Positions 29,336 to 64,000 of a stretch of DNA of 64,000 nt are shown piece by piece. Position 1 is the first letter of the stretch. Every line of letters begins with the position of its first letter. Under the pieces are notes generated by a model. The model did not search any database, had not been told where the DNA came from, and saw only the letters and a list, made by a program, of their open reading frames with translations. A program made the translations under genes and the position numbers. The stretch lies in NCBI RefSeq assembly GCF_053078305.1, contig NZ_CP166879.1. The stretch is one strand, 5' to 3'.

Positions 29336-30301
29336 TCACACCTCGTACTCCATCTCGCCATCCTTACGCAGCGGTATAATCTGCACCTTCTGCACGCGAT
29401 GGCTTTCTACCTGCAACGTTTTAAGCAAATAATCCCCCACCTGAACTTCTTCGCCAGGTTTTGGAATACGCTGCAAATATTCCATCAACAGCCCGGCAAT
29501 GGTGTGATATTCACGTTTTTCATCCAGCGGCAGCGGCACATATTGCACCAGATCCTCCAGCGGCATATGACCATTCGCCGTCCAGGAACCGTCCGCATTC
29601 TTCTGAATATCATGGCGGGCGTCGATCTCTTCCACTTCGTTCGGTAAGTTACCGGCAATGGTTTCAGTGACGTCACTTAATGTCACAATCCCTTCCACCG
29701 AGCCAAACTCATCCACCACAAAAGCAAAGTGCGTGCGGGCATTACGGAACTGCTCCAGGGCAGGTAACAACGGCAAGGTTTCCGGGAACACCAGCGGCTG
29801 GCGAATCAACACCCGCAGGTTGAGCGGTTCGCCACGCAGAGACTGTTGTAGCAGGTCGATAACGTGAACAACACCGAGCAAATCTTCTGCGTCATCGCCA
29901 TCAGTAACCACCAGCCGCGTATGCTGATTTCGCTCCAGTAACTGGCGGATCTCGTCTTCCGGCGCGTTGAGATCGATATGCTCAATATCGTGGCGCGACG
30001 TCATAATGCTGCTGACGGTACGCTGGTTAAGATTAAGTACCCGCTCAATCATCCGCCGTTCCTGCGGATTAAAGATCTGCTGGTTACCATGATCCACCAG
30101 CATGGACGCGGTTTCGGCGTCCAGTTCCGCATCTTCTTTTTGCCCGCTAAGCAGGCGCATTACCGCTTCGGTAGTCCGCTGGCGCAGCGTCTGGTTAGCG
30201 GAAAGAAAACGTCGCCGGTTAAAGATAGCCAACTGATTGAGCGCCTCGATCATCACCGAGAAACCAATAGCAGCGTACAGGTAGCCTTTCGGAATGACGA
30301 A
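29336..30301 (-). pseudogene. yegH: yegH (TerC-CBS-CorC membrane protein) 3' fragment, truncated by prophage insertion
   Basis: Frame encodes ...GFVIPKGYLYAAIGFSVMIEALNQ... through C-terminus (~321 aa); upstream of 30301 the frame hits a stop and sequence becomes AT-rich prophage-end DNA. Confidence 0.8.
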
Positions 30302-30429
30302 TATAGCGCGGCGATTTTTTTGATACCGATTTGCATTTCATTTGATACCGCTGAAAAACGCCGATACGCAACTTATTTGATACTAAATCGGCGCTTTTCT
30401 TTTGAGTTTTAGAATGAGTTTTTAAGCGC
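30302..30429. promoter_or_regulatory. prophage terminal region with iterated TTGATACCG-like motifs (candidate transposase-binding end repeats)
   Basis: TTGATACCG at 30322 and 30343, CCGATACGC at ~30361, TTGATACT at ~30385, spaced ~21 bp. Confidence 0.45.
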
Positions 30430-31167
30430 TCATTCACTCTCTTTCAAACCAGTTTTAACTGTTTGTGGTTTTGGGTAAGGCTGGACTTTGAATAGCTTTG
30501 TGTTGAGGCGTTTTCTGGCCCTCTTGTTCAGAAACCGGATGTAACGAAACTGTCGGAACTTATGCACACTGGCTCTGTCGATATTAGCCCTCAGATGTTC
30601 ACCTCGTTGTCCGCCTCGTTTAATGGCATTCCTGCAAATCTCGTGATACCACTCGCCATCAAGTTCATAGAATGTTGATTCATGGCTGCCTACATAATCA
30701 AAATTGCTTGCCTGATACACGACACCAAGACAGCCACAACGCTCATCTGCAAACGACTGAACCCACTGTACCTGCGGATAAAGATGCCTGATTAGCTTGA
30801 GCGCGTAACTGATTGCCCTTGATTCGGAGTTTCTCGGCATACAGTCATGCATCCATAGCCGGTTAAGCTCCATATATTCTCGGTTCTGCGTACCCGTTAC
30901 GACGCGTGCACCACTGTTTGGGTTAAGGGCGTAACCCCATTGCATTACGCCAACAAGTTCCCGTTCTGAAAATATACCCAGATGAAGGTAGGAATTATTT
31001 ACGAAACGGTGGCTGTAATGTTTATTGACGATAACCAGTCTGGCCAGCCAGCAACTTATTGTCTCAACCCGCAACTCACGGGAGCCATAACCAACGATAT
31101 TGTCGTTATAGCGAATAAGTTCAGGCGTGCTGATGATTCGGGATGTGACTTGCTTTCTGTTCCCCAC
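30430..31167 (-). CDS. mom: Mom-like DNA modification protein (call by position and operon context; GTG start)
   Basis: 245-aa ORF last before prophage end, overlapping upstream com-like gene as in Mu com-mom; sequence identity to Mu Mom not verified. Confidence 0.55.
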
Positions 31168-31321
31168 GACAGGATTTCCTTGTGTATGTGGGGTGCTCTG
31201 TGGCGCTCGGAGATGTGATTTGATTGAGGGTTTTACAGCGCGGACATTTTACTTCCAGATAACTGAAACTGGCCCGTGCCAGTAGCTTATTGCAGTGTCG
31301 GCACCGTATGTTTCGATACAT
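31121..31321 (-). CDS. com: Com-like zinc-finger translational activator (66 aa from internal ATG)
   Basis: [32 protein letters not shown]... resembles Mu Com (C-x2-C...C-x2-C); AGGAGG upstream. Confidence 0.7.
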
Positions 31322-31368
31322 GGCCGCATAACCTCCTGCTTTGTTGTTGATGTCTTTCTCATGCAATC

Positions 31369-31542
31369 GATCGACAAAAACGATCGATTCGATTTGTTTA
31401 ATTGATACAACAAATAGATTGAAAAGTCATCAATAATGATTCAGGGAGGTGATTATTTACTTAAAGAAAACGAAGAGTTAGGTGGTGAAAATGATCATAA
31501 AATGATCATTTTATTGACTTTTTATACAGTGAAGGTAGGATC
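31369..31542. promoter_or_regulatory. GATC-rich region upstream of com-mom (5 GATC in ~175 bp), candidate Dam/OxyR-controlled promoter
   Basis: GATC at 31369, 31382, 31493, 31504, 31539; 10-bp inverted repeat ATGTAGTATG/CATACTACAT at ~31550-31588. Confidence 0.4.
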
Positions 31543-31730
31543 GCGCGTATATGTAGTATGTTTCAAATCAATGGGATACTACATACATAAAGGGCGACCC
31601 AGATAGCGCGAACTATTCTGGGCCGATTTAGACAATTTTGCATCAATGCTTTACTTCGAGCTCGTGGCGTATCCTATGATATTCCCCGGTCTCCTGTAAA
31701 GCAGAGATGCATAAAAAGGAGATCTTTATC

Positions 31731-31901
31731 ATGGATAAAGAGCCTGTTTGCCCTGCCTGTAAGACTCCCTTACAGCTCATCTATCGCCGTTCTCGATCTC
31801 AAAATGGCAAGACATACAAACCAAAAAATGCTTCCTGTTTCAGGATGCTGATATGTCCTGCCTGTTCTCCCCGGAGGGAAAATACACAAAACGTGCATTA
31901 A
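31731..31901 (+). CDS. small zinc-ribbon protein (56 aa), opposite strand to surrounding phage genes
   Basis: AAAGGAG RBS 7 nt upstream of ATG; MDKEPVCPACKTPL...LICPACSP. Confidence 0.35.
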   Translation: MDKEPVCPACKTPLQLIYRRSRSQNGKTYKPKNASCFRMLICPACSPRRENTQNVH

Positions 31902-31939
31902 CAAATTCACCCGGCAGGGAAACCTGCCGGTCGGTATTG

Positions 31940-32185
31940 TTACATCATAGTACCGTCAGTTCCGGGCTGAACCGGCTCTGGTTGCTCTACGGGTTGAGGC
32001 TCATTTTCCGTGCTGTTTTCAGCCGGAGAACGACCAACCATTCGGGCCAGCACTTCATCAACATATGCGTCGATTTGTGCCTCAAAATCCTTGCGAACCT
32101 GCGCCTTCAGCACGCGGTTCACTTCTTCAGAATAAAGTGCCTGTTTGACAAGCTCTTCAGTAACCGTGCCTTTAATCTCTGGCAT
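31940..32185 (-). CDS. hypothetical 81-aa acidic protein
   Basis: ORF-track entry; no recognisable motif. Confidence 0.4.
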   Translation of the reverse strand: MPEIKGTVTEELVKQALYSEEVNRVLKAQVRKDFEAQIDAYVDEVLARMVGRSPAENSTENEPQPVEQPEPVQPGTDGTMM

Positions 32186-32220
32186 GAATATTCTCCTTTC
32201 CTTTTCTGGTTCACAAAAAA

Positions 32221-32400
32221 TTAAATCTGACCGGAGTCTTTCGGCTGCGGCATTACAGCACCGCTTTTTATCTTTTCCTCGGCAGCTGCATCAATTTTAT
32301 TTCGAAAATAATTGCGAATAATTTTATAACCACCGCTGACAAGCAACAGACAACAAACCACCGTGCAGAAATACAGCAGGCAGACGTTTATATATGTCAT
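32221..32400 (-). CDS. hypothetical small hydrophobic protein (59 aa)
   Basis: My own translation (under 60 aa, not in ORF track): MTYINVCLLYFCTVVCCLLLVSGGYKIIRNYF...; GTGAGG RBS upstream. Confidence 0.3.
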   Translation of the reverse strand: MTYINVCLLYFCTVVCCLLLVSGGYKIIRNYFRNKIDAAAEEKIKSGAVMPQPKDSGQI

Positions 32401-32457
32401 ATAAGCCTCACTCTTATTAACTGATGTTACAGCCGGATAAATTCCCGGCCGTCACGA

Positions 32458-34515
32458 TTATGCCGCAGGGGTATTAACCTCAAGGACAACGCTCTCAAAA
32501 GACACGCCATAAGTTGCCCCTTTGGTGACATCTGTCAGTGTCAGCGTATCTTTGGCAGGGGAAAGTGCATCTTTCACCATCTGGAATGCCTGGCCCGGAG
32601 TGCCATCCAGCACAGGCGTTACCTGGGCACTTCCCGCAGTAAACTTCAGGACAAGTGTATGCCACTGGTTATTGTAGGCTCCAAATGATCCCAGTTTCGT
32701 ATTCCCCCCTGTTTTATGGTGCATCAGATTTAACTGGCCGCCTGTTGTCTGGAGATAATACGCCATCAGGAACGGTGTGCCTGTACCACTCATGGTTACA
32801 CCTTCCGGGACCGTATCGGTGTGGAGGTAAATACCCAGAGCAAACTGGCCTTCTTTTACTTCACCTGACAGACGGAATTTACAGGTCAACTGACCACCAT
32901 GCTTCAGAAGTTCACCGGCTGCATCAGTTCCATGGGTAAGCGTCCAGGTTTTTCCGCTTTGTTTGGATACGGTCAACGCTTTACCTTCGTCCGTCAGCTG
33001 GATTGTACCATCTGTAATTTTCCATCCCTGAGCCGGGGCTTCCCCTGCTGATGCTTTAAGTGAAAGCAGCGTACGGAGTGACGGGGATGTCGGCTGGGGG
33101 GACTCACTGCTTCCTGGCTGACTACCTGTCGGAGCTTCCGGTTTTCCACCCGGCGCGGGCTGAGGCAGGGCTTCACCATCAGGGGCCACACCGGCAATAA
33201 ATGCAGAGGTCAGACCTGCATATTTAAGAATTGCTGATGCAAAACGATCTGAGACCAGAAAACGGCGCGCCCAGGAGCTAAAATGGGTTGCCCTGGATGC
33301 TGTTGTCCAGTTGCCATCTCCCCGTGATTCCGCACCATAATACCCGGCAGAAGCGATATCCGGGTCGTGCTCCGGCAGGTTGGTCGCGGTTTTATTACCG
33401 AACTCATCGTGCATCAGTGGAACAAAGTGAATGTTCTCGGAAGCCCGGTTTTTATATCCGCTATAAATGGTTTCATATGCCGCCGGGTTCTTCTCTTTCC
33501 AGTCATAGGTTGTGTCACCACATAACCACGGCACACTGTCTGATGAACCACCAATACACTGACCGGAGAAAGCACCAAGATCCGCACGGAATTTTTTCAC
33601 CATCGCAGTAAACTGGGCACCATGCTGGGCCGGGGTCGCTTTAAGGTCTCCTTCCCCCTGAATCCATACGACAGATAACAGCACATTCTTTGGATTCGCC
33701 TCAAGTGCCGCTTTCGTTCGACTGACAAGATCCTGATACAGTGGGGTATCCACTCCCCAGCGTAGTGACGCCTCGGCTGCACCACTTGCCGGATCGAATG
33801 AGCCAACTGCGCCGGTTGTAAAAGCAGAGCCGCCACGGGCACAGGGAACCAGTAAAATCCCGGCATCAGCAGGAATCACCGGTAATACTTTTTTCGCAAT
33901 ATGAAGTCCCTGACCCACACAACCATACTGCCCTTTTTTCAGGTCTGCTTTTGGATGGTTCAGCAGACTCATATTCTGAACATCATGAAGGCAGTGATCT
34001 GCTGGAATGATTTCATTGTATTTGCAGGGAATACCCCCGGGGGTTTGTGTATTCCTGCGTGCCAGCTGCATAATACGTGGATCAGGACGATCATAAGAAT
34101 CCGGCAGGGGCAACCCTTCACCATAAGATGAAGCATTGGACTGACCGGCTATAACAATCACGTAATACCAGGAAGGGGAGCTGGAAGCCGTTTCATTTCC
34201 TGCCGGACGGGTATGTGTGTCAGCATTATCCCAGTCTGACGGTTCAGCAGTACCGGCAACATCAGCACTTAACGGAATGACAGCACCAATACCCGCTCCG
34301 GTAATTTCCACGTTCGGATCACCGGATACTGGCCTTACCCACAGGCAATCCCGTGTATTAAAACTGATGAGACAGTCAGCAAATGTCATTCCTCCTTTCG
34401 TTTCAGCCGGAGGAAAGGGAGCCTCAAGAAATGCCGCTGTACCACCGGAAACTTTAACGGTAAAGTTTCCGGGCATTGATGATAGTTGAACCCATTTGGA
34501 CGTCATAATATTCAT
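32458..34515 (-). CDS. SGNH/SASA-family carbohydrate esterase, NanS-p-like (putative sialate O-acetylesterase) with C-terminal lectin-like domain
   Basis: 685-aa ORF; VIVIAGQSNASSYGEG (GQSN block I), CARGGSAF, IQGEGD, DGNW...H blocks; Pro/Ser linker then beta-rich C-terminus. Confidence 0.55.
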   Translation of the reverse strand: MNIMTSKWVQLSSMPGNFTVKVSGGTAAFLEAPFPPAETKGGMTFADCLISFNTRDCLWVRPVSGDPNVEITGAGIGAVIPLSADVAGTAEPSDWDNADTHTRPAGNETASSSPSWYYVIVIAGQSNASSYGEGLPLPDSYDRPDPRIMQLARRNTQTPGGIPCKYNEIIPADHCLHDVQNMSLLNHPKADLKKGQYGCVGQGLHIAKKVLPVIPADAGILLVPCARGGSAFTTGAVGSFDPASGAAEASLRWGVDTPLYQDLVSRTKAALEANPKNVLLSVVWIQGEGDLKATPAQHGAQFTAMVKKFRADLGAFSGQCIGGSSDSVPWLCGDTTYDWKEKNPAAYETIYSGYKNRASENIHFVPLMHDEFGNKTATNLPEHDPDIASAGYYGAESRGDGNWTTASRATHFSSWARRFLVSDRFASAILKYAGLTSAFIAGVAPDGEALPQPAPGGKPEAPTGSQPGSSESPQPTSPSLRTLLSLKASAGEAPAQGWKITDGTIQLTDEGKALTVSKQSGKTWTLTHGTDAAGELLKHGGQLTCKFRLSGEVKEGQFALGIYLHTDTVPEGVTMSGTGTPFLMAYYLQTTGGQLNLMHHKTGGNTKLGSFGAYNNQWHTLVLKFTAGSAQVTPVLDGTPGQAFQMVKDALSPAKDTLTLTDVTKGATYGVSFESVVLEVNTPAA

Positions 34516-34605
34516 CCTGTTCCTGAATAAACAGAATTATCATATCCACAGACCGATAAACGCCATTTTGCGTTAATTCAGTAAAGGCCCAACAAAGGGA
34601 GCGTC

Positions 34606-34910
34606 TTATTTTTCCGAAATGCTCGCAGGATAATAACGATAAAGGGTTGAAAGGCCGATATCAAAAATAAGTGCCACCTGTCTTCGGCTGACACCCCCGG
34701 CCAGTAAACGCCCGACCTGCTCGTATTGTTCCTGCGTGAGACGACGGGGTCTGCCGCCGGTTCGTCCCCTTTCACGGGCAGCTGCAAGACCAGCCCGTGT
34801 CCGTTCGACAATCAATTCACGCTCCATTTCTGCCAGCGCACCCATTATGTGAAAAAAGAAGCGCCCCATGGGGGTTGACGTATCAATGTTGTCAGTAAGA
34901 CTACGAAAAT
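34606..34910 (-). pseudogene. gin: gin/pin-family DNA invertase, C-terminal fragment (HTH domain)
   Basis: Encodes FRSLTDNIDTSTPMGRFFFHIMGALAEMERELIVERT...GGRPRRLT...; matches Gin from about residue 90 onward. Confidence 0.8.
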
Positions 34911-34996
34911 GTAAGCGTAAACTGACCGCCGTATGTAGCCATTAAGCCAGTATTGGTAACGTAGGTGCCCACCTTTTCAACTAGTGGACACCTGTT

Positions 34997-35422
34997 ATGG
35001 AACAGAAAATATTATCCTCAGAACCCCGCAGATCATTTTCAAATGAGTTTAAACTTCAAATGGTTAAACTGGCTTCACAACCAGGAGCCTCTGTTGCCCG
35101 TATTGCCCGGGAACACGATATCAATGATAACCTCCTGTTCAAATGGCTCAGGCTCTGGCAGAACGAAGGGCGTATATCGCGGCGTCTTCCGGTAACAACC
35201 TCTTCTGGCGCTGGCGTTGAATTATTACCTGTTGAGATAACGCCTGATGAGCAGAAAGAGCCTGTGGCGGCTCTTACTCCGCTTTTATCCACTCCTTCAC
35301 AAAGCACAGTCAGTGCCAGTTCCTGTAAAGTTGAGTTCCGCCACGGTAACATGACGCTGGAAAATCCTTCACCAGAGCTGCTCACGGTGTTGATCCGTGA
35401 ACTGACCGGGAGGGGACGATGA
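34997..35422 (+). CDS. tnpA: IS66 family accessory protein TnpA (orf1)
   Basis: 141-aa ORF with HTH-like N-terminus. Confidence 0.85.
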   Translation: MEQKILSSEPRRSFSNEFKLQMVKLASQPGASVARIAREHDINDNLLFKWLRLWQNEGRISRRLPVTTSSGAGVELLPVEITPDEQKEPVAALTPLLSTPSQSTVSASSCKVEFRHGNMTLENPSPELLTVLIRELTGRGR

Positions 35423-35769
35423 TCTCGCTCCCATCAGGCACTCGAATCTGGCTGGTTGCCGGCGTTACTGATATGCGTAAATCCTTCAACGGTCTGGGAG
35501 AACAGGTACAACATGTGCTGGATGAGAACCCCTTCTCCGGTCACCTGTTTATCTTTCGCGGCCGACGGGGTGACACGATTAAAATTCTGTGGGCTGATGC
35601 TGATGGTCTGTGCCTGTTCACCAAACGTCTGGAGGAAGGCCAGTTTATCTGGCCTGCGGTGCGTGACGGTAAGGTATCCATTACCCGCTCGCAGCTGGCA
35701 ATGCTCCTCGATAAACTGGACTGGCGTCAGCCCAAAACATCCCGCCTTAATGCACTGACAATGTTGTAA
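35419..35769 (+). CDS. tnpB: IS66 family protein TnpB (orf2)
   Basis: 116-aa ORF MISLPSGTRIWLVAGVTDMRKSFNGL...; 4-bp overlap with orf1. Confidence 0.9.
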   Translation: MISLPSGTRIWLVAGVTDMRKSFNGLGEQVQHVLDENPFSGHLFIFRGRRGDTIKILWADADGLCLFTKRLEEGQFIWPAVRDGKVSITRSQLAMLLDKLDWRQPKTSRLNALTML

Positions 35770-35799
35770 AAATGTCATGGCCGGATTATAAAAACGGTC

Positions 35800-37413: not shown

Positions 37414-37443
37414 GCGTCAATACGGTGCTCCGTTGACGCTTAC

Positions 37444-37705
37444 GAAAATTTATCCCCTGTTGCTGTAATTCATCTGTCAGCGCAACAAGGTGGCGCATAC
37501 TGCGCCCCAGCCTGTCCAGTTTCCAGACCATCAGCGTGTCACCGGGTTTTAGTTTCTTCAGTGCCCGCTTCAGTCCCGGCCGCTGCGTTGTTTTTCCGCT
37601 CATTTTATCTTCAAAAATCAGCTCACATCCTGCACATTCCAGCGCATTTCTTTGTAAACCTGTGTTCTGGTCATTTGTTGATACGCGTATATAGCCAATC
37701 AGCAT
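37444..37705 (-). pseudogene. gin: gin/pin-family DNA invertase, N-terminal fragment (catalytic Ser domain)
   Basis: MLIGYIRVSTNDQNTGLQRNALECAGCE...GDTLMVWKLDRLGRSMRHL...GINFR then IS-derived tail; ORF-track 37400..37705. Confidence 0.85.
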
Positions 37706-37759: not shown

Positions 37760-37785
37760 ATACCTGAAACCTCGGTTTACGGGAA
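37760..37785 (-). promoter_or_regulatory. gix-like recombination site (invertase crossover site), gin-proximal
   Basis: Minus-strand TTCCCGTAAACCGAGGTTTCAGGTAT vs recalled Mu gix TTCCTGTAAACCGAGGTTTTGGATAA (21/26). Confidence 0.6.
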
Positions 37786-38154
37786 ACGGTAAACAGGGCT
37801 GCAAATGCCCTGCCATCGAATGGTACAGCCGTAGCGGCAAACAAGCTGTCTGCGGCACGTAAAATTAACGGTGTTGCGTTCGATGGCACAAAGGACATCA
37901 CTATTACATCCGGGATGACCCAGTCTACAGCAGACGGCAGATATGTTCGTAATGTGCAACTTGGTGCTCAGAGCCGCCACTCTCCTGCGGGTAATGAAGT
38001 CACCTGGGATTATAAAACGCCAGCAGGTTGTATGCTTTCTGGTATTCATGTGCAGGATACCGGCTCCCGGTCTGCGGATAATATCGGTGGGGTCTATTAT
38101 CGCCCGGTTCAGATTTATATTAATAATGCCTGGAGAACGGTAAGTTCAGTGTAA
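37768..38154 (+). other. silent alternative tail-fibre C-terminal cassette (Sv'-like), no own start codon
   Basis: Frame open from 37768: NLGLRETVNRAANALPSNGTAVAANKLSAARKINGVAFDGTKDITITSGMTQSTADGRYV..., paralogous to C-terminus of the 38790..39677 fibre. Confidence 0.6.
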
Positions 38155-38188
38155 ACCACAGAAAAGGGTGCTGAATGCACCCTCTGAA

Positions 38189-38710: not shown

Positions 38711-38789
38711 TATTTCACCTTGTTTTTGTTGAAAAGACAAAATCATCATATATTTATTCAGATAATCTGTTTTTTGAACTACTGCACTT

Positions 38790-47837: not shown

Positions 47838-47845
47838 GCCTTACC

Positions 47846-50917: not shown

Positions 50918-50960
50918 ATTTGCCCTCCGCAGGGGCCGGGCCGTAAGCCCGGCTCACCAT

Positions 50961-53041: not shown

Positions 53042-53216
53042 ACCGGCAGCATAAGCCGGGAATTTTCAGGGCGGGTTTTGCGGGATTTCAGGAAGTATTT
53101 TCAGGGAAAAATGCAAAGGCGCTTCACGCAGATTTTAAAGCCCGTTAAATACAGGTTAGAAAATCACGACACGCGCCTGAAGGGGGTAAGGTAATGCATT
53201 TGCATACCTTAAACAA

Positions 53217-53690: not shown

Positions 53691-53815
53691 ATTGCCTCCG
53701 TGAAACTACCTGGTTAAAATAAAAGCAGGTCGGTGTACTCTTAACTGGTAAAGCGGCACCTGAGGGATATCTTCACCCGAAGGATGTTTATGTGGGTTCG
53801 ACCCCCACCACCGAC

Positions 53816-56723: not shown

Positions 56724-58378
56724 CCCCGATCAAATTCATGATATGCCTCATCGTCATCACGATAACCGCCCTCCATTGCCCGCGACCGCTCCGGCAGCGC
56801 CTGACAGGCTGATTCATCCAGGATGAAGCCCTCCATGTATGACGCCCGGTTTGCCATACAGAGCGCCACGGCAAAATCGCCATGGCGGCGGGCGTTCACA
56901 GCCGTTGCGTTCTGGTCCTTCGTGCGCCCCTTGTCGATTTGCGGGATACCGTTCACCATCTTCACATGGCGCAAATCATCAAGCGTGGTCTGATGGCGGG
57001 CGACGAGGATATTCTGATCTTCAAACTCGGCCTTCAGTTTTGGCATCCACTCGCCGTACCACTTCGGCGATAACATCACGCAGTCGATGATGTCCGGGCC
57101 AAAGGCCAGCAGCGCGGCTTCGGCCAGATAGCCGCCGTTACCGGTGGCGTCGAACGCCGCACCGACCAGCGCCGGAACGCGGGTCAGGATGTACATCATC
57201 ACCTGCTCCTGCTGGGCATACGGCAGGTTGCGCAGCTCCACGCGAAACACCTCGCGTTTTGCCAGGGATTCAGTGATTTCCAGCAGCACAAAGCAGGACA
57301 GGTCACCGGTGCGGGCAAAGTCTTCCCCGAAGCTGAAGCGGGAACGGGGATTTAACGCCTCTAAAAGCGGTTTTAAATGTTCTTCACACCAGGTTAAAAC
57401 TTCCGATTCACGCAGCCATGCGGCACGGCTGATGAAGTCGTCCGGGGCTTCAAACGTCAGAATCGGGATGTCGCGGATCATCGCCATTTCAATAAGTGCG
57501 TGAGGAATATAGGCACCGCCGGATTTTTTCGGGATACAGCCGTATTCCTCGTCGGCATCCTCACGGGTCGGGGCGTTTTTGTAGAGATCATCACGCCACT
57601 TCTGCTCGCTTTCCGGTGACCATTCGCGGCCGGTGACATAACAGATACGACGGTACAACCCGTCCGTAATGGCATCATCCAGGGTAATGCGGTGGACGCT
57701 GTAATCCTTGCGCCCCTCGCGGGCTTCCTGAATGTACTGATTAAACAGATTATCGACGCCGTTATGCGTGGAGATAATACGCACGCGCGCGCCCCACATG
57801 GTAAGCGCCATTGCCGCCTTGAGAAGTTCATCCAGCGACTCGTGGAACGCGGCTTCATCAATCACCACATCCCCCTGAAGGCCGCGCAGGTTTGACGGAC
57901 GGGAAGACAGCGCCTGAATTTTGAATCCACTGTTCGGAAAGCGGATCATGTAGGTCAGAATTTCTTCTTTTTTATCCCGATCCCAGAAGGTCTGCTCATA
58001 CACATCAGCATCGGCCAGCTGGTTAAAGGCACGGGAGAACAATGCACAGGCAGAAATATATTCCAGCGCCATCTCCTGCTTTGACCCCACATAAAACACA
58101 TTGCGGCCACCACGCCGCTTCGGTTTTGCAGCGGTAATGACGTTACGCCCGGCTTCCGCCCAGGTAAGCCCGGTGCGGCGGGATTTTTCCGCGATGCAGA
58201 CCTCGCTTTCATCCTCAAACCAGCGGGCCTGATAATCCAGAAACACCGGCATATCACCGGGCAAATCAAGGCTGTCCGGCACATCCACGCCCAGCAGGGC
58301 TTTTTCACCGGCCAGATCAATTTTGCGGGTGGAGACGGTATTCGTCAGTAAGGGTGAGCGTTCTTCGGCGTTATTCAT
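56714..58378 (-). CDS. terminase large subunit (Mu gp28-like)
   Basis: 554-aa ORF. Confidence 0.85.
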   Translation of the reverse strand: MNNAEERSPLLTNTVSTRKIDLAGEKALLGVDVPDSLDLPGDMPVFLDYQARWFEDESEVCIAEKSRRTGLTWAEAGRNVITAAKPKRRGGRNVFYVGSKQEMALEYISACALFSRAFNQLADADVYEQTFWDRDKKEEILTYMIRFPNSGFKIQALSSRPSNLRGLQGDVVIDEAAFHESLDELLKAAMALTMWGARVRIISTHNGVDNLFNQYIQEAREGRKDYSVHRITLDDAITDGLYRRICYVTGREWSPESEQKWRDDLYKNAPTREDADEEYGCIPKKSGGAYIPHALIEMAMIRDIPILTFEAPDDFISRAAWLRESEVLTWCEEHLKPLLEALNPRSRFSFGEDFARTGDLSCFVLLEITESLAKREVFRVELRNLPYAQQEQVMMYILTRVPALVGAAFDATGNGGYLAEAALLAFGPDIIDCVMLSPKWYGEWMPKLKAEFEDQNILVARHQTTLDDLRHVKMVNGIPQIDKGRTKDQNATAVNARRHGDFAVALCMANRASYMEGFILDESACQALPERSRAMEGGYRDDDEAYHEFDRGCW

Positions 58379-58959
58379 CAGGCTTTACCCAACAGAATCC
58401 CCTTAATACGGGACTCAAGCTGTTCACTCATCCCGTCCACGCCGCGCAGCTCGTCGGTGACGGCGTTTGCCATCTCTTCAGCAAATGCAGCCCGGATTTC
58501 TTTTTCACGCTTAATGCTGCGCTCGGCGGCACTTTCCGCACGCTGTGCTGACAGGAGGATGTCCTTAATAAGACGCATATCCACGTCGCTGTCGCTGTTC
58601 AGGGATTCGGTGGCGGCACGCAGACGGCGGTACATCAGGGCGCGGGACATCTCCAGAATCAGTGCAGTGGTTTCACCGGTCGGCTTGTCCCCCAGTTCGG
58701 CCATCATGGCTTTTGTCTGCTCGCGTAAATCACGCAGGTTACGGGCAATCAGCTCATTACGGGAGGCTTCCCGGCTGATGGCCGCCGGTGAAAGCTGCTG
58801 CTCTTCCGGCAGGCCCGCCTCACGGATCAGACGGTTGATTTCCTCGCGGATCTGGACCTGCGTCAGACGTTTTTCACGCAGCATTTCCAGCAGCGGCTTA
58901 CGGATACTGTCGGGGAGCAAATCCACCTTGCGTACACGACCACGCGTCGGCTTGTCCAT
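58378..58959 (-). CDS. terminase small subunit (Mu gp27-like)
   Basis: 193-aa ORF immediately upstream of large subunit. Confidence 0.65.
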   Translation of the reverse strand: MDKPTRGRVRKVDLLPDSIRKPLLEMLREKRLTQVQIREEINRLIREAGLPEEQQLSPAAISREASRNELIARNLRDLREQTKAMMAELGDKPTGETTALILEMSRALMYRRLRAATESLNSDSDVDMRLIKDILLSAQRAESAAERSIKREKEIRAAFAEEMANAVTDELRGVDGMSEQLESRIKGILLGKA

Positions 58960-58961
58960 CG

Positions 58962-59252
58962 TTACCCCCTTGCGCGTGGTTTCTTCACACCCGGAACACT
59001 GGCGCGGCCTTCCGCCACATCCTGCCCCCGGCCGGTCAGCTCTGCGATGAAATAACCGTTAATCAGAACACGTTTGCGCACCAGTCCCTGCTCGGCAAGC
59101 CAGGCAATGTGGGTGTGAACGGTGTCGCGGGACACGCGGTGGCCGTAATCATCCAGACAGTCCTGGAGCACGGATTCACCCAGTTCACCGTTGTAATCTG
59201 CCAGCGACCGCAGAATGACCAGACGCTGATCTTCAGTAATGAAATCACTCAT
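58962..59252 (-). CDS. Mu gp26-like small protein
   Basis: 96-aa ORF; synteny. Confidence 0.5.
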   Translation of the reverse strand: MSDFITEDQRLVILRSLADYNGELGESVLQDCLDDYGHRVSRDTVHTHIAWLAEQGLVRKRVLINGYFIAELTGRGQDVAEGRASVPGVKKPRARG

Positions 59253-59557
59253 TGCGTTTTTTTCCTTACAGCCTGCTCCAGCAGCAGTTCGTTCTGATAG
59301 GAGACAGAGCGGAGCGTGGCGTTCGTGGTTTTCAGTTCACCCCGCAGGGTCACGATTTCCACATTCAGACGGTTGACCTCGGCTTCTGTCGGCAGTGACG
59401 ACAGACGGGTTTCCACCTTCTCAACGCGGTCGGAGAGTTTTTCAAAGGCCTCGCGGGGGACAAACGTTTTGCGCATCAGCGCCATGAATATCCCGCCAGC
59501 GGTTGCCGTCGCCGAAAGGATCGGCACAACATAATCTTTAACGATGCTGACCCACAT
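59249..59557 (-). CDS. membrane-anchored coiled-coil protein (Mu gp25-like, possible lysis accessory)
   Basis: 102-aa ORF; N-terminal TM then coiled coil. Confidence 0.45.
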   Translation of the reverse strand: MWVSIVKDYVVPILSATATAGGIFMALMRKTFVPREAFEKLSDRVEKVETRLSSLPTEAEVNRLNVEIVTLRGELKTTNATLRSVSYQNELLLEQAVRKKTQ

Positions 59558-59831
59558 GACGGGCCTCCATGATGTTCTGGCAGTTCACACAACGGATGGC
59601 ATCCGGCACAGCAACAAGACGTGCGGCGGGGATCTCTCCGCCACAGTCCGCGCAGACACGTCTGCCCGGAGCATCCACTGCCCGGCGCTTACGTGTCAGC
59701 CGGTTACAAAGGGCGCGTTCTGATCCCCGCTCCATCACAGCCTGAGCACGATCTGAATCATCCATACCTTTTTCCTTACTTCGTCTTTCCTGCCGGAACA
59801 GCAGGCGTTCCGGCCATATCAGTAAATTCAT
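59538..59831 (-). CDS. TraR/DksA-family C4 zinc-finger protein
   Basis: C-terminal CADCGGEI...CVNCQ motif. Confidence 0.6.
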   Translation of the reverse strand: MNLLIWPERLLFRQERRSKEKGMDDSDRAQAVMERGSERALCNRLTRKRRAVDAPGRRVCADCGGEIPAARLVAVPDAIRCVNCQNIMEARHVGQHR

Positions 59832-60147
59832 GTTGTCGCCGCGCCTCCAGACGACGAATACTGGCCTTATCCACGTTGCAGTTCTTGATCACCGCCAGCA
59901 GTTGCAGGTTGTAAGTGACCGATGCCCCAAACGTGAACGGCTCCGGCGCAGGAGGGACCAGGCAGTCAGCCAGCCATTCAGCGGGGATCGGCACCGGCTT
60001 CACAGGCACGTATTTCACAGACGGCCCGGCGCACCCGGTCAGCCACATCATCAGGAACAGGGACAGAGGCCGCAGGCACTGCTGCCAGCGACCGGCGGAC
60101 AACGCTCTGCTGCTCCTCGCTGTGCTGAATGTTCTGTTGCTTTTCAT
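59776..60147 (-). CDS. Rz1-like o-spanin lipoprotein overlapping i-spanin in another frame
   Basis: Signal peptide ending in lipobox LTGC, Pro-rich mature region; ORF-track frame 59776..60342. Confidence 0.45.
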   Translation of the reverse strand: MKSNRTFSTARSSRALSAGRWQQCLRPLSLFLMMWLTGCAGPSVKYVPVKPVPIPAEWLADCLVPPAPEPFTFGASVTYNLQLLAVIKNCNVDKASIRRLEARRQHEFTDMAGTPAVPAGKTK

Positions 60148-60499
60148 TCGTGGCCGCCTCACTGATTTGTGAAATGAGTTGCAGGGTGTGCTGCTGATTT
60201 GCCAGCACCTGACGCGCCTCATCCCGCTCACGCACAAGCACCTGATTATTGTCTTCAAGGCGCTGCGTCTTCTGGTGCATTCCCCATATCGCGGCAACCA
60301 GTACAGCGATAGTCCCCAGCGCCGCCATGCACGCCCCGGCAATCAGGGCCGGTAAGGCGTTATTCACCGCAGCCACAGGACACCCCGTAACAGCAGTACC
60401 GCACACAGCAGCGCTATCATGAGCGGTCGCCAGAAGCGGTTCAGACTTTCGGCAAGTCGTAGCGACATAACCATTCATCCGCCGAACGGCGGGCCTCAA
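59978..60499 (-). CDS. Rz-like i-spanin (start uncertain)
   Basis: TM segment LPALIAGACMAALGTIAVLVAAIWG then coiled coil; overlaps lysozyme 3' end. Confidence 0.5.
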   Translation of the reverse strand: MRPAVRRMNGYVATTCRKSEPLLATAHDSAAVCGTAVTGCPVAAVNNALPALIAGACMAALGTIAVLVAAIWGMHQKTQRLEDNNQVLVRERDEARQVLANQQHTLQLISQISEAATNEKQQNIQHSEEQQSVVRRSLAAVPAASVPVPDDVADRVRRAVCEIRACEAGADPR

Positions 60500-60941
60500 G
60501 GCCGGGAAGTTTCACCCCCTTTGAATAAATCCAGCGGATATACTGCTTACAGGACGCGGGCATCTGCCCGGCATTGATCAGGCGCAGAAGCGTGGAGTTG
60601 CGAAAGTTCGTTTCACCGGCCCAGAAGATCCACGAAGCCAGCGCCACCGTCTGACCACGGGTAAGCGGCACCTGAACACGCCGATCAATGGCCGCAAAGG
60701 CCCATTTCATGTCCTTTTCCAGTAGTTCCAGGCATTCTTCATCTGTCAGGGTCATACCCGGTTTCACATCCGGGCCGGTATGGCCGTAACAGATGGTGGG
60801 TGTACCGGTGGGATCGATATACGTGGAGTTTTCTTTCCCTTCCCAGTAACCGGTGTAATGCGTGGCAATCGTGAACGTCCCGGCACCGGCCAGAACAAGG
60901 GCAATCAGCTTTTTACGCAGTGGTGCGGGGAGTTTTGGCAT
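60441..60941 (-). CDS. SAR-type endolysin (lysozyme family)
   Basis: N-terminal signal-anchor LIALVLAGAGTFTIA; YWEGKENSTYIDPTGTPTICYGHT lysozyme catalytic motif. Confidence 0.75.
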   Translation of the reverse strand: MPKLPAPLRKKLIALVLAGAGTFTIATHYTGYWEGKENSTYIDPTGTPTICYGHTGPDVKPGMTLTDEECLELLEKDMKWAFAAIDRRVQVPLTRGQTVALASWIFWAGETNFRNSTLLRLINAGQMPASCKQYIRWIYSKGVKLPGLEARRSADEWLCRYDLPKV

Positions 60942-61012
60942 TGTTACGCTGTCTCATGATGTTCTCTGAGTCAGCGTAACGGTGAAGGAGAGGCGGCAGG
61001 CTTTGCGGAATA

Positions 61013-61438
61013 TCAGAAAAGTGGCGGTTGCGTTCTTGCCAGATGCAGACGGCGCTGTTCACGTATGACGGTATAAATCTGGGTTTCTGACATCCGGTAA
61101 TGGCGGCGAAGGGATTCAATCTTCTCGCCCCGGTCCCAGCGCGAAAATATCTCATTGTTTCGCAGCTCGGCAAAGAGAGATTCCCCGACCGGCAGGTAAT
61201 AACCCCGTCCGCCCATATAGGCTGCCTGAGCCGCAGCCACCTTGCGTGCCAGTTTACCGGCCAGTACCGGCTCAATCCCCTGACGCTGAAGTTCTGCGCC
61301 GGTGACTTCAACCAGTTCTGACAGGGTCCGCGGCCAGTTCTTTTTGAGAACATCATCAGGGATGTCATCAAGGCGGTCGATAAGGGCGTGCAGTTGCTCA
61401 CTGTCACCACCAAACATGCTCATCTGAGTTTCTGCCAT
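61013..61438 (-). CDS. Mor/C-family transcription activator (middle/late operon regulator)
   Basis: 141-aa ORF with C-terminal HTH; located between early genes and lysis genes. Confidence 0.8.
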   Translation of the reverse strand: MAETQMSMFGGDSEQLHALIDRLDDIPDDVLKKNWPRTLSELVEVTGAELQRQGIEPVLAGKLARKVAAAQAAYMGGRGYYLPVGESLFAELRNNEIFSRWDRGEKIESLRRHYRMSETQIYTVIREQRRLHLARTQPPLF

Positions 61439-61507
61439 ATCAGCCTCCGGTTCTCGCGTTCCCGGTAAGTTTAAAATAAAAATCCCGCGTTGTGGCGGGA
61501 TTTGGGG

Positions 61508-62017
61508 TTAACGGGGAAGTGATTTTTCATACTGCCTGCAAACGGCGTCATACCCCATCAGCGTGCGTTCGGGCATTCCCATCGCGGCCAGCATTTTGCG
61601 GCGGTGCCATCGCTTGAGACGCTCCAGCACATCTGAGGCCAGGGCGGGGTGTTGCTCCAGCCACTGCCAGTTTGCCACACCTTCGCCGCCGTTCTGCGCG
61701 GCCGTCTGCGATTTCACCCAGCGGTTAAGAGCGGTTTCCGCACCATCAGAGATAAAGCCCTGCCGGTGCATCACTTTCCAGATGGCGCGAATTCTGGCGG
61801 TCACCGTACCCGGTTTTAAGGCCCGGTTAACCGGTTTCTGACGCACTTTAAAACCGCGTTTTTTGAAAACATCCAGCACGCGGGATAACTCACCGGGTGA
61901 CATATCCCGGCAACTGGTTTTGCCGGTGGCTGCCAGTAGTACGAATGTGTAGGTCTCATCATCCAGGGCAAGCTCGCGCTTTGCCACATGAATGGCGGAT
62001 ATCAGTTTTCCTCTCAT
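61508..62017 (-). CDS. Mu gp16 (GemA)-like protein
   Basis: 169-aa ORF immediately upstream of Mor-like gene. Confidence 0.55.
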   Translation of the reverse strand: MRGKLISAIHVAKRELALDDETYTFVLLAATGKTSCRDMSPGELSRVLDVFKKRGFKVRQKPVNRALKPGTVTARIRAIWKVMHRQGFISDGAETALNRWVKSQTAAQNGGEGVANWQWLEQHPALASDVLERLKRWHRRKMLAAMGMPERTLMGYDAVCRQYEKSLPR

Positions 62018-62310
62018 ACCGTATTTACCTTTTTACGGACATGGAAAGCCTTTTCTGCCTCATCCCACCGGGCATGGTGTGTTGGCGGAATAATCATTAT
62101 GTGCCAGCCATCTCTGGTTGTTATCCGGCAGAAAAATTCACCGCTATATAACACAATGGCCTGCTGAATGAGCGCATCAGCCGCCCGTTCAACCGGATGT
62201 CTTTTATCAAAAAAGCAGATGATTTTTCGACATAACCACCGGGTAATAACAAATGCGCCGAAAAAGGATGTGATATATAAGCACCAGAACAACAGAGAAC
62301 TATTGTCCAT
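62014..62310 (-). CDS. hypothetical membrane protein (prophage early region)
   Basis: 98-aa ORF with N-terminal TM. Confidence 0.4.
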   Translation of the reverse strand: MDNSSLLFWCLYITSFFGAFVITRWLCRKIICFFDKRHPVERAADALIQQAIVLYSGEFFCRITTRDGWHIMIIPPTHHARWDEAEKAFHVRKKVNTV

Positions 62311-62497
62311 TATCTTTCTCCTTATTCACTCTTCTGCGGCATTCGGCACAGTCATCAGGGCTTTCAAATGTATCCGGCTCGCGATTATGAGCCAGATATA
62401 ACCACCGTCCACATATACTGATATTTTCGCCTGTTTTAAAAAAATGATGCTTCCTGGCCATTAGTGGCCGCGCCCATCCAGCGGGTAGACTATTCAT
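62300..62497 (-). CDS. hypothetical small Cys-rich protein
   Basis: 65-aa ORF; CGRW...CAEC. Confidence 0.35.
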   Translation of the reverse strand: MNSLPAGWARPLMARKHHFFKTGENISICGRWLYLAHNREPDTFESPDDCAECRRRVNKEKDNGQ

Positions 62498-62825
62498 TTG
62501 CTTTATCCTCCATACTGGAGAGAATCATATGTATTAATGTCGGGCGTGGAGATATACGCATTTCATTAAGCGTCTGAAGGGCAGCAACAGCTGCCTGTTT
62601 ATCGGTGCCTTTGGCAATTTCAGCAAGAGAATGCACAATCCATAACGGGCTTAACGCTACGGCTGAATGCAGAATCATGTCATCCATAATAATTTCTGGC
62701 ATATCCCGTTTGTCACATTCTTTATCCATAAAAGAAACAATTTTTTCTGCATCTTCCGGTTTCATGCCTCCGGCGATGAGAATTTTACGATATTCATAAG
62801 ACGATCTTAATTCAATACTCATCAT
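62490..62825 (-). CDS. hypothetical protein (prophage early region)
   Basis: 111-aa ORF. Confidence 0.4.
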   Translation of the reverse strand: MMSIELRSSYEYRKILIAGGMKPEDAEKIVSFMDKECDKRDMPEIIMDDMILHSAVALSPLWIVHSLAEIAKGTDKQAAVAALQTLNEMRISPRPTLIHMILSSMEDKANE

Positions 62826-62837
62826 TCACCTGCCTGT

Positions 62838-63230
62838 TTAATCAGTTTCCAGTGCTTTGCTACGGGCAACAGCCTCACACTCAAAAAATACCGACTCCGG
62901 CACACGTTCTTTTAATTCACGAACAAGGAAGTTATTAACGCGCTCGTGACATCTTATATTTCTTTCCTTTTCCTCCTGGCGTAATACAGCAAGGCGGTAT
63001 TCAACAGTCCGGCGTTGTTTCTGAAAGACAGCCAGTGCTTTTCTGGCAGAGTTACGCCATGTATCATCACCACAGGGTGCGTATTCAAGCTGAAATTTAA
63101 TCTCTTCAATGGTTTCTTTTATTTTTGCCAGCAAGCTAAGACAGTCGCTGATTGTCTTCAGTTTTTCATTATCAATATAACTTCTCACGCATTCACCTCC
63201 CGTCATTCCGGTAAAGCTGAAATATGGCAC
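62838..63230 (-). CDS. hypothetical protein (prophage early region)
   Basis: 130-aa ORF. Confidence 0.4.
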   Translation of the reverse strand: MPYFSFTGMTGGECVRSYIDNEKLKTISDCLSLLAKIKETIEEIKFQLEYAPCGDDTWRNSARKALAVFQKQRRTVEYRLAVLRQEEKERNIRCHERVNNFLVRELKERVPESVFFECEAVARSKALETD

Positions 63231-63514
63231 CAGTGCGTCACCTGTCCGTCCTCATCTTCAAGGCAGGCTCCGGTTTCTTCATCAATAAAAAAGCCTTCAT
63301 ACCCCATATGGCCGATGCGCAGTTCCTGTTGGTCACCATACTGAACAATCAGCACGACTGCCTCCATATCAGGCGGAAATGCGTCATCCAGTGAATGCCA
63401 GGGATAACCGCGCAAATCCCCGAAATAAACACCGGTCAGCGTTCCGCCACAAACCGGCATTCCGGCGGCACATACCAGAGGCTCGTCTGATTCAACAAAT
63501 AATGTCGTTATCAT
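63203..63514 (-). CDS. hypothetical acidic protein (prophage early region)
   Basis: 103-aa ORF. Confidence 0.4.
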   Translation of the reverse strand: MITTLFVESDEPLVCAAGMPVCGGTLTGVYFGDLRGYPWHSLDDAFPPDMEAVVLIVQYGDQQELRIGHMGYEGFFIDEETGACLEDEDGQVTHWCHISALPE

Positions 63515-64000
63515 GGCATTAACTCCCGTAATACAACATCTTCGGCAGTCCGGCGATGGTGATAAATAAAATTCACCGTACTCTCGGATAATTCAAATTT
63601 CTCGCCTATTTCCCGGAAGGTAATACGTCGTGGCGATTCAGCATCCCGTAATTCACGAATAAGACGAACATCATCGTCAGGTATACGGGTGAAGGGCAGC
63701 AATTCACCACACTTTTTTAAGCTGACGCCAGTCACTCGTGCCCGGCAGCGGATGCTGTCATGATGTCGCCCGAGATACTCCCCCATTTGCCTGCTGGTCA
63801 TCGTTCTGGCATTTTTTCGGATAAATTTATCTTCATCAGGTTTAAATCTGGGGCGTTTGCATTTGAGCAACTCCGGGTAAGTACCGCGTAATAAAACAAT
63901 CCGGTTATATACACCCCAGAAACTTCTTTTTACCCTGACAGCAATATCCTTAACCGGGGTGGATGGATAAAGCGCAATCAGCAGTGCATCTTCTTCAGGT
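63511..64000 (-). CDS. HTH-containing early-region protein, 5' end beyond window
   Basis: Frame stays open from 63870 to window end (...PEEDALLIALYPSTPVKDIAVRVKRSFWGVYNRIVLLRGTYPELLKCKRPRF...); ORF-track start at 63870 is an internal TTG. Confidence 0.45.
   Translation of the reverse strand, partial: PEEDALLIALYPSTPVKDIAVRVKRSFWGVYNRIVLLRGTYPELLKCKRPRFKPDEDKFIRKNARTMTSRQMGEYLGRHHDSIRCRARVTGVSLKKCGELLPFTRIPDDDVRLIRELRDAESPRRITFREIGEKFELSESTVNFIYHHRRTAEDVVLRELMP

Follow-up and report, generated by a model that had tools for sequence, protein, structure and literature searches.

Sp18 of Escherichia coli O157:H7 Sakai was described as a Mu-like prophage, predicted to be intact, whose DNA is packaged and not circularised (PMC2669165). 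Sp18-like prophages, such as Phi804-3 of FRIK804 and the CC119 Mu-like phages, occupy variable, strain-specific insertion sites (PMC7430833, PMC10132054). Site variability of the Sp18 type is therefore known, and a Mu-like phage that splits a gene is an ordinary, already known kind of element. Phage Mu (Muvirus mu, NC_000929) has the gene order ner/A/B, gam, gemA, lys, head, tail, S-U, gin, com-mom, and its close relatives SfMu (Shigella) and D108 (E. coli) share its lifestyle and gene order.

We analysed a stretch of 64,000 nucleotides, hereafter the window (contig NZ_CP166879.1 of assembly GCF_053078305.1), in which yegH is interrupted by phage DNA. Positions 30302-64000 very probably represent the right-hand 33.7 kb of an Sp18-type Mu-like transposable myovirus prophage of ~41.7 kb (~39.1 kb of phage DNA and 2.5 kb of IS682), inserted by DDE transposition at codon 207/208 of yegH. 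As judged from its sequence, this prophage belongs to the Sp18-type lineage of Mu-like STEC prophages and is thus a known kind of element.

The host flank was compared with E. coli K-12 MG1655 by BLASTN. The asmA/dcd region of K-12 corresponds to window positions 26644-29143 (98.7% identity), and nucleotides 619-1584 of yegH plus 20 nt downstream correspond to 29316-30301 (99.1% identity). The yegH stop codon lies at 29336 and the K-12 homology ends at 30301, which is nucleotide 619 (codon 207) of the gene. The preliminary description, according to which yegH is intact only for its C-terminal ~321 codons and breaks at ~30301, was thus exact: out of 527 codons, 321 (codons 207-527) remain in the window, and the 5' 206 codons are parted from them by the prophage. 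Beyond this point, starting at 30302, the DNA is 97-99% identical to Sp18-type Mu-like prophages of STEC, with 99% to that of O157:H7 strain 380-94 (BLASTN). No tRNA or Rfam feature was found at the junction, and the yegH/prophage junction was absent from the 5,426 complete E. coli genomes searched. The features at this junction are as follows.

29336-30301, minus strand: yegH 3' fragment, codons 207-527 and stop (99.1% to K-12 b2063 nt 619-1584; translations compared)
30298-30301, no strand: right-hand copy of the target-site duplication, CGAA on the plus strand, TTCG in the yegH sense (left junction GGCTTCG/TGTAACC; K-12 empty site GGCTTCGTCATT)
30302-30429, no strand: prophage right end (attR-type), terminus TATAGCGCGGCG followed by three TTTGATAC repeats (six-insertion alignment; motif scan)

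In an alignment of six insertions, each from a different host locus, the sequence was invariant exactly from 30302. The iterated end motifs noticed earlier at the break are real: a motif scan placed TTTGATAC at 30319, 30341 and 30376, and three of the four copies present in the 64-kb window fall within 30319-30383. Three more copies are found at the left end in contig JPQG01000003.1, a sibling assembly. The repeats, three per end as are the transposase-site-like repeats of Mu, point inward at both ends and are presumed to be transposase-binding sites. The same phage ends occur at ~20 unrelated chromosomal loci in other strains, and left ends were found at eleven further sites. Whole prophages with both flanks were also compared, four and then three more. 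The left terminus is 5'-TGTAACC and the right terminus is ...GCGCTATA-3', with TA-3' where Mu has CA-3'. All eight Sp18-type insertions have a target duplication of 4 bp, the fifth base differing in four of them, and comparison with the empty sites of K-12 at melA, yahN/yahO and yegH confirmed this length; at yegH it is TTCG, with an ambiguous fifth base (T). This duplication-length pattern is robust across insertions, and the 5-bp duplication that had been expected, which is the length found in Mu, does not hold for the Sp18-type family. It is possible, though we lean slightly against it, that Sp18-type phages use a 4-bp stagger and a TA-3' right terminus as a mechanistically distinct Mu-like branch; no description of this stagger or terminus in Sp18-type phages was found in the literature searched.

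The same observations bear on the idea of an ordinary integrase-mediated prophage in yegH, to which we give practically no credence. No support for it was found: no integrase was detected in the window, in the sibling contig or in any complete relative, and the sole recombinase is a fragment of a Gin-type serine invertase disrupted by an insertion sequence. Identical ends at so many unrelated loci argue against it, as does a duplication made of 4 bp of target sequence, no att core common to the insertions having been found.

The left end of the prophage lies ~8 kb beyond the window, and the transposase, the repressor and the left junction are outside the window too. This missing part can be seen in the assembly of E. 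coli strain 48, from the same lineage, whose contig JPQG01000003.1 is identical to window positions 27400-47705 and 51508-63456 and covers a single prophage without a break between the 3' and 5' parts of yegH. Its left part carries Gam, Kil, a MuB-like ATPase, a divergent MuA-like transposase, a Ner-like protein, a divergently transcribed repressor gene and the left end, with the junction ...GGCTTCG/TGTAACCAGG..., in which TTCG repeats the TTCG of the right junction. The left-end ORFs are all open (186-aa repressor candidate, 76-aa Ner/SfsB-like protein, 695-aa A and 310-aa B). The A protein contains the Pfam domains HTH_Tnp_Mu_1 and Mu-transpos_C and matches the I-alpha domain of MuA (1tns) and a retroviral-integrase-like core, although it is only 22% identical to MuA over its full length. 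The B protein matches the MuB structure 8xvb (2.7e-84) and Pfam Phage-MuB_C. All close relatives likewise encode, at their left ends, a MuA-type transposase and a MuB-type ATPase together with a Ner-like protein and a repressor, and the Mu-type transposition machinery is probably functional. The left end with repressor, ner and A/B predicted by the preliminary description is thus present in the sibling contig, and the yegH 5' part adjoins it beyond the prophage instead of being contiguous with 30301; the predicted left junction and target duplication were also recovered in that assembly, the duplication being 4 bp long and not 5 bp. Insertion within the coding gene yegH by transposition, and not by an integrase at an att site, is supported by the MuA-type transposase of the relatives and sibling contig together with the lack of an integrase, and Mu likewise inserts into genes without one.

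A second Mu-like copy lies next to yecJ in the same genome (JPQG01000010.1). The last 544 bp of the window (63457-64000) are 100% identical to this copy, whereas 45 differing positions separate JPQG01000003.1 from the window within 63457-63985. Over at least 8.9 kb (window 54580-63456), the only differences between the two copies are 7 indels where the contig ends, and gene orientations compared with the K-12 gene order imply that the second copy is inverted relative to the yegH copy. Since the last 544 bp match the second copy, recombination or an assembly difference between copies is possible, and the window's own left part may differ from that of JPQG01000003.1. One could then propose a rearranged prophage, with the yegH-side right part joined to the left part of the yecJ copy, arising either by gene conversion or by homologous recombination, the latter with inversion of a chromosomal segment of ~150 kb; after inversion, the left end would abut yecJ and not yegH 5'. 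The match of the window end to the yecJ copy and the long identity between inverted copies are in line with this proposal, but the divergent sequence in view is limited to 544 bp, and the data fit equally well with a short gene-conversion patch or with a long repeat phased differently in the two assemblies. As JPQG01000003.1 is contiguous from yegH 3' through the prophage to yegH 5', we consider such a rearrangement quite improbable, and it would leave transposition into yegH as the original event.

Concerning gene content, a tblastn search with all Mu proteins gave matches for 40 out of 54, in Mu order. The collinear minus-strand matches comprise gemA, the Mor/C protein, lys, gp25-30, G, I, T, gp35-38, L, M, gp41-48, S, U, gin, com and mom. 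The prophage genes other than the gin region are the following.

30430-31167, minus: mom, DNA modification, 245 aa (76% to Mu Mom; phrog_1384, 1e-83; Pfam Mom)
31121-31321, minus: com, translational activator of mom, 66 aa (47% to Mu Com; phrog_13819)
31940-34515, minus: cargo block absent from Mu (Pfam on identical sequence; RefSeq annotation of relatives)
31940-32185, minus: DUF826, cargo (Pfam)
32221-32400, minus: DUF1378, cargo (Pfam)
32458-34515, minus: SASA/DUF6645 carbohydrate esterase, cargo (Pfam)
38790-49348, minus: tail module, with the next eleven genes (collinear tblastn to Mu, 35-53%; Pfam; PHROGs)
38790-39677, minus: tail fibre, S-like
39677-40234, minus: gp48
40225-41310, minus: gp47
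41307-41744, minus: gp46
41737-42351, minus: gp45
42341-43465, minus: P baseplate hub
43449-44798, minus: N / DNA-circularisation protein
44785-46854, minus: tape measure
46981-47457, minus: gp41-like chaperone
47472-47837, minus: tube M
47846-49348, minus: sheath L
49345-58959, minus: head, connector and packaging module, with the next eight entries (tblastn to Mu, 38-72%; Pfam Portal_Mu, Phage_Mu_F, Mu-like_Pro_N, Mu-like_gpT; PHROGs)
49345-50917, minus: gp35 to gp38
50961-51908, minus: T major head
51908-53041, minus: I protease/scaffold
53217-53690, minus: G
53816-55141, minus: gp30/F
55125-56714, minus: gp29 portal
56714-58378, minus: gp28 large terminase-like
58378-58959, minus: gp27
58962-60941, minus: lysis and small late genes, with the next six (Pfam on identical sequence; tblastn to Mu lys, gp23, gp25, gp26)
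58962-59252, minus: gp26
59249-59557, minus: gp25
59538-59765, minus: TraR/DksA zinc-finger protein
59776-59994, minus: Rz1/LysC-like
59978-60376, minus: Rz-like DUF2570
60441-60941, minus: lysozyme
61013-61438, minus: single Mor/C-family transcription activator, 141 aa (Pfam Mor)
61508-64000, minus: distal early ("semi-essential") region, with the next three entries (tblastn, Pfam)
61508-62017, minus: GemA/gp16 (43% to Mu gemA by tblastn; Pfam GemA)
62014-63514, minus: five small ORFs
63511-64000, minus: 183-aa ORF cut by the window end

The Mu-order late region reported earlier on the minus strand is therefore real, as seen by collinear tblastn, but it is interrupted by IS682 on the plus strand. 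The distal part of the early region is present in the window as well; the gene taken for Mor is a single Mor/C-family gene closer to Mu C (38.7% identity, 3e-28) than to Mu Mor (25.8%, 1e-10), and no second Mor/C-family copy was found in the prophage, whereas Mu has Mor plus C. Two GATC sites (31369 and 31382) lie 48-64 nt upstream of com. The cargo block, located between gin and com, had no Mu homologue in the tblastn search with all Mu proteins.

Sp18 and the Sp18-like prophages share 90-99% nucleotide identity with 30302-64000, IS682 excluded. They have identical right- and left-end sequences and the same gene set, with the SASA/DUF6645-DUF1378-DUF826 cargo, a short invertible tail-fibre segment and the single Mor/C gene; the yegH site and the IS682-disrupted gin are features of the window prophage. 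The O157 380-94 prophage is 99% identical over 30302-34910 and 90-97% over the rest, but its invertible segment is flipped and 62838-63504 has no match in it, though other relatives match there. Mu keeps the same gene order with almost no nucleotide similarity: B is 48% identical and Mom and the Gin N-terminus 76%, while the repressor is unrelated, with no match to that of Mu. SfMu and D108 give weak nucleotide matches, in the F/gp30 gene only; they belong to the Mu species group proper, whereas the window prophage falls in a separate Sp18 lineage.

The gin region is organised as follows.

34606-34910, minus: gin-type invertase gene, 3' fragment (collinear with an intact 186-aa recombinase gene of the O157 380-94 prophage)
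34911-37443, plus: IS682 (IS66 family) within gin (NCBIfam IS66 TnpA, TnpB, transposase; 99.9% to annotated IS682 copies)
34997-35422, plus: IS682 tnpA (NCBIfam)
35419-35769, plus: IS682 tnpB (NCBIfam)
35800-37413, plus: IS682 tnpC (NCBIfam)
37442-37705, minus: gin 5' fragment, 88 codons (76% to Mu Gin residues 1-88; Pfam Resolvase)
37768-39152, no strand: invertible host-range segment (inverted repeats; inverted BLAST match; phrog_136)
38192-38713, minus: tail-fibre assembly gene, within the invertible segment (phrog_136)

NCBIfam equivalogs for IS682 TnpB and transposase scored above cut-off. The element shows IS66-family features: a tnpA-tnpB-tnpC operon, inverted repeats beginning GTAAGCG (ends read directly) and an 8-bp duplication, ACGAAAAT, at 34903-34910 and 37442-37449, the last two IS682 bases being ambiguous with the target. 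Imperfect inverted repeats of 181 nt (37768-37948 and 38972-39152) delimit the invertible segment. The segment measures 1.4 kb, with one assembly gene, against 3 kb for the Mu G segment, and also includes the tail-fibre 3' end; BLAST places it in the orientation opposite to that of O157 380-94. Since IS682 is predicted to abolish Gin tail-fibre switching, the host range is locked, on this sequence evidence, in the present tail-fibre orientation.

Apart from gin, which is dispensable for Mu growth, every large ORF is open, and the prophage may therefore have stayed active. The opposite view, that it arrived by transposition but is now a fixed defective remnant, incapable of transposing or of producing infectious particles, appears unlikely. 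It could draw on the split gin, on the position of this copy's own left-end genes beyond the window and on the frequency of prophage decay in STEC (PMC2669165). However, each large structural, lysis and regulatory ORF of the window is open and has the length of its counterpart in Sp18, itself predicted intact with packaged DNA (PMC2669165), and the A, B, ner-like and repressor ORFs are open in the sibling contig.

For the preferred reading, an Sp18-type prophage transposed into yegH, we propose the following course. The A transposase, aided by the target activator B, would insert the linear infecting phage DNA by strand transfer with a 4-bp stagger. yegH would be left as a 208-codon 5' fragment ending in the TAA of the phage left end (TTC GTG TAA) and a promoterless 321-codon 3' fragment. 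Lysogeny would be kept by the left-end repressor; once repression is lifted, replicative transposition would follow from expression of the early operon, the single Mor/C-type activator would start transcription of the operons for lysis, head, tail and com-mom, and headful packaging would take up phage DNA together with flanking host DNA.

The insertion accounts for yegH being a pseudogene in this STEC lineage. The mobile DNA recognised here amounts to 41.7 kb and includes a mom anti-restriction module as well as a sialate-esterase-type cargo gene. Two near-identical inverted Mu-like copies invite both chromosomal inversion and misassembly, which matters when genome structure is compared in the lineage. 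If confirmed biochemically, the 4-bp duplication and the TA-3' end would be a modest addition to what is known of Mu-family transposases.

The first 29 kb of the window follow the K-12 gene order baeR-baeS-mdtDCBA...yegE-udk-dcd-asmA, as judged by ORF sizes and by BLASTN against K-12. K-12 yegH (b2063, 527 codons) aligns to the minus strand of window 29316-30301 with 99.1% identity (BLASTN), up to nt 619, where codon F207 begins. No K-12 homology was detected from 30302 onward when the window was compared with K-12 by BLASTN. The preliminary description had proposed that about 321 C-terminal codons of yegH are left, that the frame breaks at about 30301, and that iterated end motifs lie at the break. 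All three proposals are borne out: alignment to b2063 leaves exactly 321 codons and ends at 30301, and three TTTGATAC octamers, out of four in the whole window, are found within 65 bp of the right end of the prophage. An alignment of the ends from six genomes indicates that invariance starts exactly at 30302, with TATAGCGCGGCGATTTTTTTGATACC..., the flanks being unrelated. In the yegH sense, the right junction reads ...CGCGCTATA/TTCGTCATTCCGAAAGG, and the K-12 empty site is GGCTTCGTCATTCC.

A 172-bp stretch absent from K-12 was also observed between asmA and yegH (29144-29315). About 1,500 of the 5,426 complete E. coli genomes have the full-length stretch. Genomes with at least one match contain it at a median of two places, which makes it a small repeated element between genes. 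In some strains this position is taken instead by a Gp49/HTH toxin-antitoxin-like pair.

The window ends inside a 183-codon early ORF, about 8 kb before the left end of the prophage. Exact-protein look-ups with the truncated YegH products returned only frameshifted or contig-end yegH copies (305 aa and 306 aa) without prophage, the 685-aa esterase ORF led to two unrelated insertions, and a 103-aa early protein was too common to single out the yegH insertion. We reached the left end through a unique ORF fusing Gin to IS682, then through a rare GemA allele (four contigs on record). The fusion ORF matched contig JPQG01000003.1 (assembly GCA_000736735.1) from E. coli strain 48, a STEC with subAB2-3 (PMC5323612). 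This contig is 100% identical to window 27400-47705, is also identical over window 51508-63456, and then runs on to the left end. Its left junction reads GGCTTTAGCCTGGTGGCAGAAGGTTTCGGCTTCG/TGTAACCAGGTGAATCATTTGATACC..., the first 34 bases being yegH nt 589-622. In the window orientation, the left end is ...GGTATCAAATGATTCACCTGGTTACA, which in JPQG01000003.1 is adjoined by CGAAGCC, the 5' part of yegH on the reverse strand. A first guess at the left end of the family, …GAAGTATA, was wrong since the sequence farther out is identical in three strains; the true left end of the Sp18-type family lies 90 nt outside it. A motif scan of JPQG01000003.1 showed three further TTTGATAC repeats at the left end, pointing inward. 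The reconstructed prophage is 41,682 bp long with its insertion sequence, and its left part carries the following genes.

Genes in the left 4.4 kb of the prophage, from JPQG01000003.1
Left 4.4 kb, divergently transcribed: repressor candidate, a 186-aa HTH protein
Left 4.4 kb: Ner/SfsB-like protein, 76 aa
Left 4.4 kb: A protein, 695 aa
Left 4.4 kb: B protein, 310 aa

The A protein combines the I-alpha DNA-binding domain of MuA (1tns) with a core resembling that of retroviral integrases, and shares 22% identity with MuA over its full length. The B protein is clearly the MuB orthologue, with 48% identity to MuB and a match to PDB 8xvb at E = 2.7e-84. NCBIfam lacks dedicated models for MuA, MuB, the esterase and the repressor, and yielded only weak generic matches. 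Thus, the A/B pair, the ner-like gene, the repressor candidate and the yegH 5' junction that the preliminary description sought by extending the contig are all present in JPQG01000003.1, outside the window. The opposite outcome that it had considered, an integrase with att repeats in place of A/B, did not materialize: no integrase was found in the window, in JPQG01000003.1 or in any complete relative. Scans for tRNA and Rfam features found none in 28800-64000.

TTCG stands at both junctions compared with the K-12 empty site, indicating that the prophage is a simple insertion with TTCG duplicated. A fifth base, T, is ambiguous at yegH since the left end of the phage also begins with T. The phage end contributes the TAA that closes the yegH 5' fragment after codon 208 (TTC GTG TAA). 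This product of the 4-bp model, YegH 1-208, matches only contigs that end there by chance within normal yegH sequence, and no record was found for the 211-aa product of a 5-bp model. The direct repeat is exactly 4 bp in all eight Sp18-type insertions for which both flanks were in hand, three of them compared with K-12 empty sites, and the fifth base differs in four. A 5-bp duplication, obtained by moving the left terminal T or the right terminal A to the flank, fails in at least four of the eight cases. The preliminary description was therefore right to expect a target duplication, but its length is 4 bp in this family and not 5. The Sp18-type termini are 5'-TGTAACC on the left and ...GCGCTATA-3' on the right; Mu likewise begins with 5'-TG, whereas its right end is CA-3' instead of TA-3'. 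No description of the duplication length of Sp18-type phages, nor of its combination with a TA-3' right end and so divergent an A protein, was found in the searchable literature.

The same two phage ends occur at many unrelated sites in complete and draft genomes. In complete genomes, the sites are yfcC, gabP/gabT, a giant adhesin gene, cah, yahN/yahO, melA, a ydjL-like dehydrogenase gene and pspG; in drafts, glgB, abgT, yfhM, a hydrogenase gene, a PTS gene, an MFS transporter gene, yecJ and others. Published sites are sorM (Sakai) and prpD/prpE (FRIK804), and Mu-like phages have strain-specific sites, some inside Stx prophages (PMC7430833, PMC10132054). The yegH junction was found in none of the 5,426 complete E. 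coli genomes; the insertion is private to a narrow lineage. In strain 2014C-3011 (NZ_CP027591.1 4585077-4626500), an Sp18-type phage in pspG has been reduced to its right 3.9 kb. This remnant, which spans mom to a truncated esterase gene and adjoins an integrase fragment, ISEc8 and a lambdoid prophage with nleC, illustrates how such phages decay and recombine.

The annotated relatives are Sp18-type Mu-like prophages. In these, mom and com occupy one end and are followed by a Gin-type recombinase, the invertible segment of the tail fibre, genes for baseplate, tail, head and lysis, an activator of the Mor family, and GemA. The opposite end encodes Gam and Kil, an AAA+ ATPase, a protein annotated with a 'Mu transposase C-terminal domain', a small HTH protein and a divergent repressor. 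Window 30302-34910 is 99.0% identical to the prophage of E. coli O157:H7 380-94, and the match runs on to the window end at 90-97%, broken once by 2.5 kb of other sequence and containing a single 1.4-kb segment in inverted orientation. When all 54 Mu proteins were searched against the reconstructed prophage by tblastn, 40 had a match and all were collinear, in the order ner, A, B, gam, gp11, gp12, gemA, Mor/C protein, lys, gp23, gp25-30, G, I, T, gp35-38, L, M, gp41-48, S, U, gin, com and mom. PHROG and Pfam assignments are consistent with this order, which confirms the complete Mu-order late region with Mor and early genes proposed from the sequence. At the nucleotide level there is hardly any similarity to Mu, D108 or SfMu, which places the prophage in a separate Sp18 lineage and not in Mu proper. 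In Sp18-type prophages, the interval that separates the G-like gene from the F-like one (window 53690-53816) bears a 'tRNA-OTHER' in the PGAP annotation; this tRNA is unsupported here, ARAGORN and Rfam finding no tRNA in window 29000-64000.

Several features depart from Mu. Only one activator gene of the Mor/C family is present (61013-61438), with gemA and the lysozyme gene as its immediate neighbours, and its product is closer to Mu C (38.7%) than to Mu Mor (25.8%). The Mor gene of the preliminary description thus holds as to family, but it is single and nearer C, and the Mu early-middle-late cascade may be shortened in this prophage, with one C-like activator. Mu also lacks the cargo block found between gin and com (31940-34515), which encodes a carbohydrate esterase of 685 codons (SASA/DUF6645) together with DUF1378 and DUF826. 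Elsewhere, genes of these types are annotated near the lysis region of lambdoid STEC prophages, suggesting that Mu-like and lambdoid phages have exchanged them. A pair of GATC sites separated by 13 bp (31369-31385), 48-64 nt upstream of com, is reminiscent of the Dam/OxyR-controlled region upstream of mom in Mu. The invertible host-range segment (37768-39152) is only 1.4 kb. Imperfect inverted repeats of 181 nt bound it, it contains one tail-fibre assembly gene, and it is flipped relative to 380-94. If it were turned round, the assembly gene would point away from the fibre gene. IS682 (IS66 family, 2,533 bp, + strand; 99.9% to annotated copies, with tnpA, tnpB, tnpC and GTAAGCG ends) lies inside gin, occupying 34903-37449 with its 8-bp duplication, ACGAAAAT. 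It cuts gin after codon 88 into an 88-codon 5' fragment and a 3' fragment, so fibre switching is lost.

The last 544 bp of the window (63457-64000) show 45 differences from JPQG01000003.1 (8018-8561 of its left-end stretch, L044) and are 100% identical to a second Mu-like prophage on JPQG01000010.1 of the same assembly, whose left end adjoins yecJ. Elsewhere the copies agree base for base over at least 8.9 kb, except for indels at the contig end, and judging from gene orientations they are inverted relative to each other on the chromosome. The window thus derives from another assembly or isolate of this lineage than JPQG01000003.1, and its yegH-side prophage carries copy-2-type sequence where the copies begin to differ. 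Gene conversion between them fits this pattern, as does a phasing difference between assemblies. Inversion between the copies fits as well, in which case the prophage would be a recombinant with the second copy and yecJ/ftnA would lie beyond its left end. Under all three, the original event is transposition into yegH, since both half-junctions with the shared TTCG exist. Such long identical copies are a substrate for inversion, gene conversion or mis-assembly.

With the exception of gin, every large ORF is open and equals its counterpart in relatives in length. Sp18 is reported to be predicted intact, packaged, not circularised and not mitomycin-inducible (PMC2669165). Given both, the window copy may still be transposition-proficient. 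The preliminary description was right in both observation and interpretation, a transposable prophage inside yegH by transposition. The element is Mu-like in how it works and belongs to the known Sp18-type group of such prophages, a kind of element whose behaviour is already documented. The consistent 4-bp duplication, together with the TA-3' right end and the highly divergent A protein, appears mildly novel and is the sole such thread.
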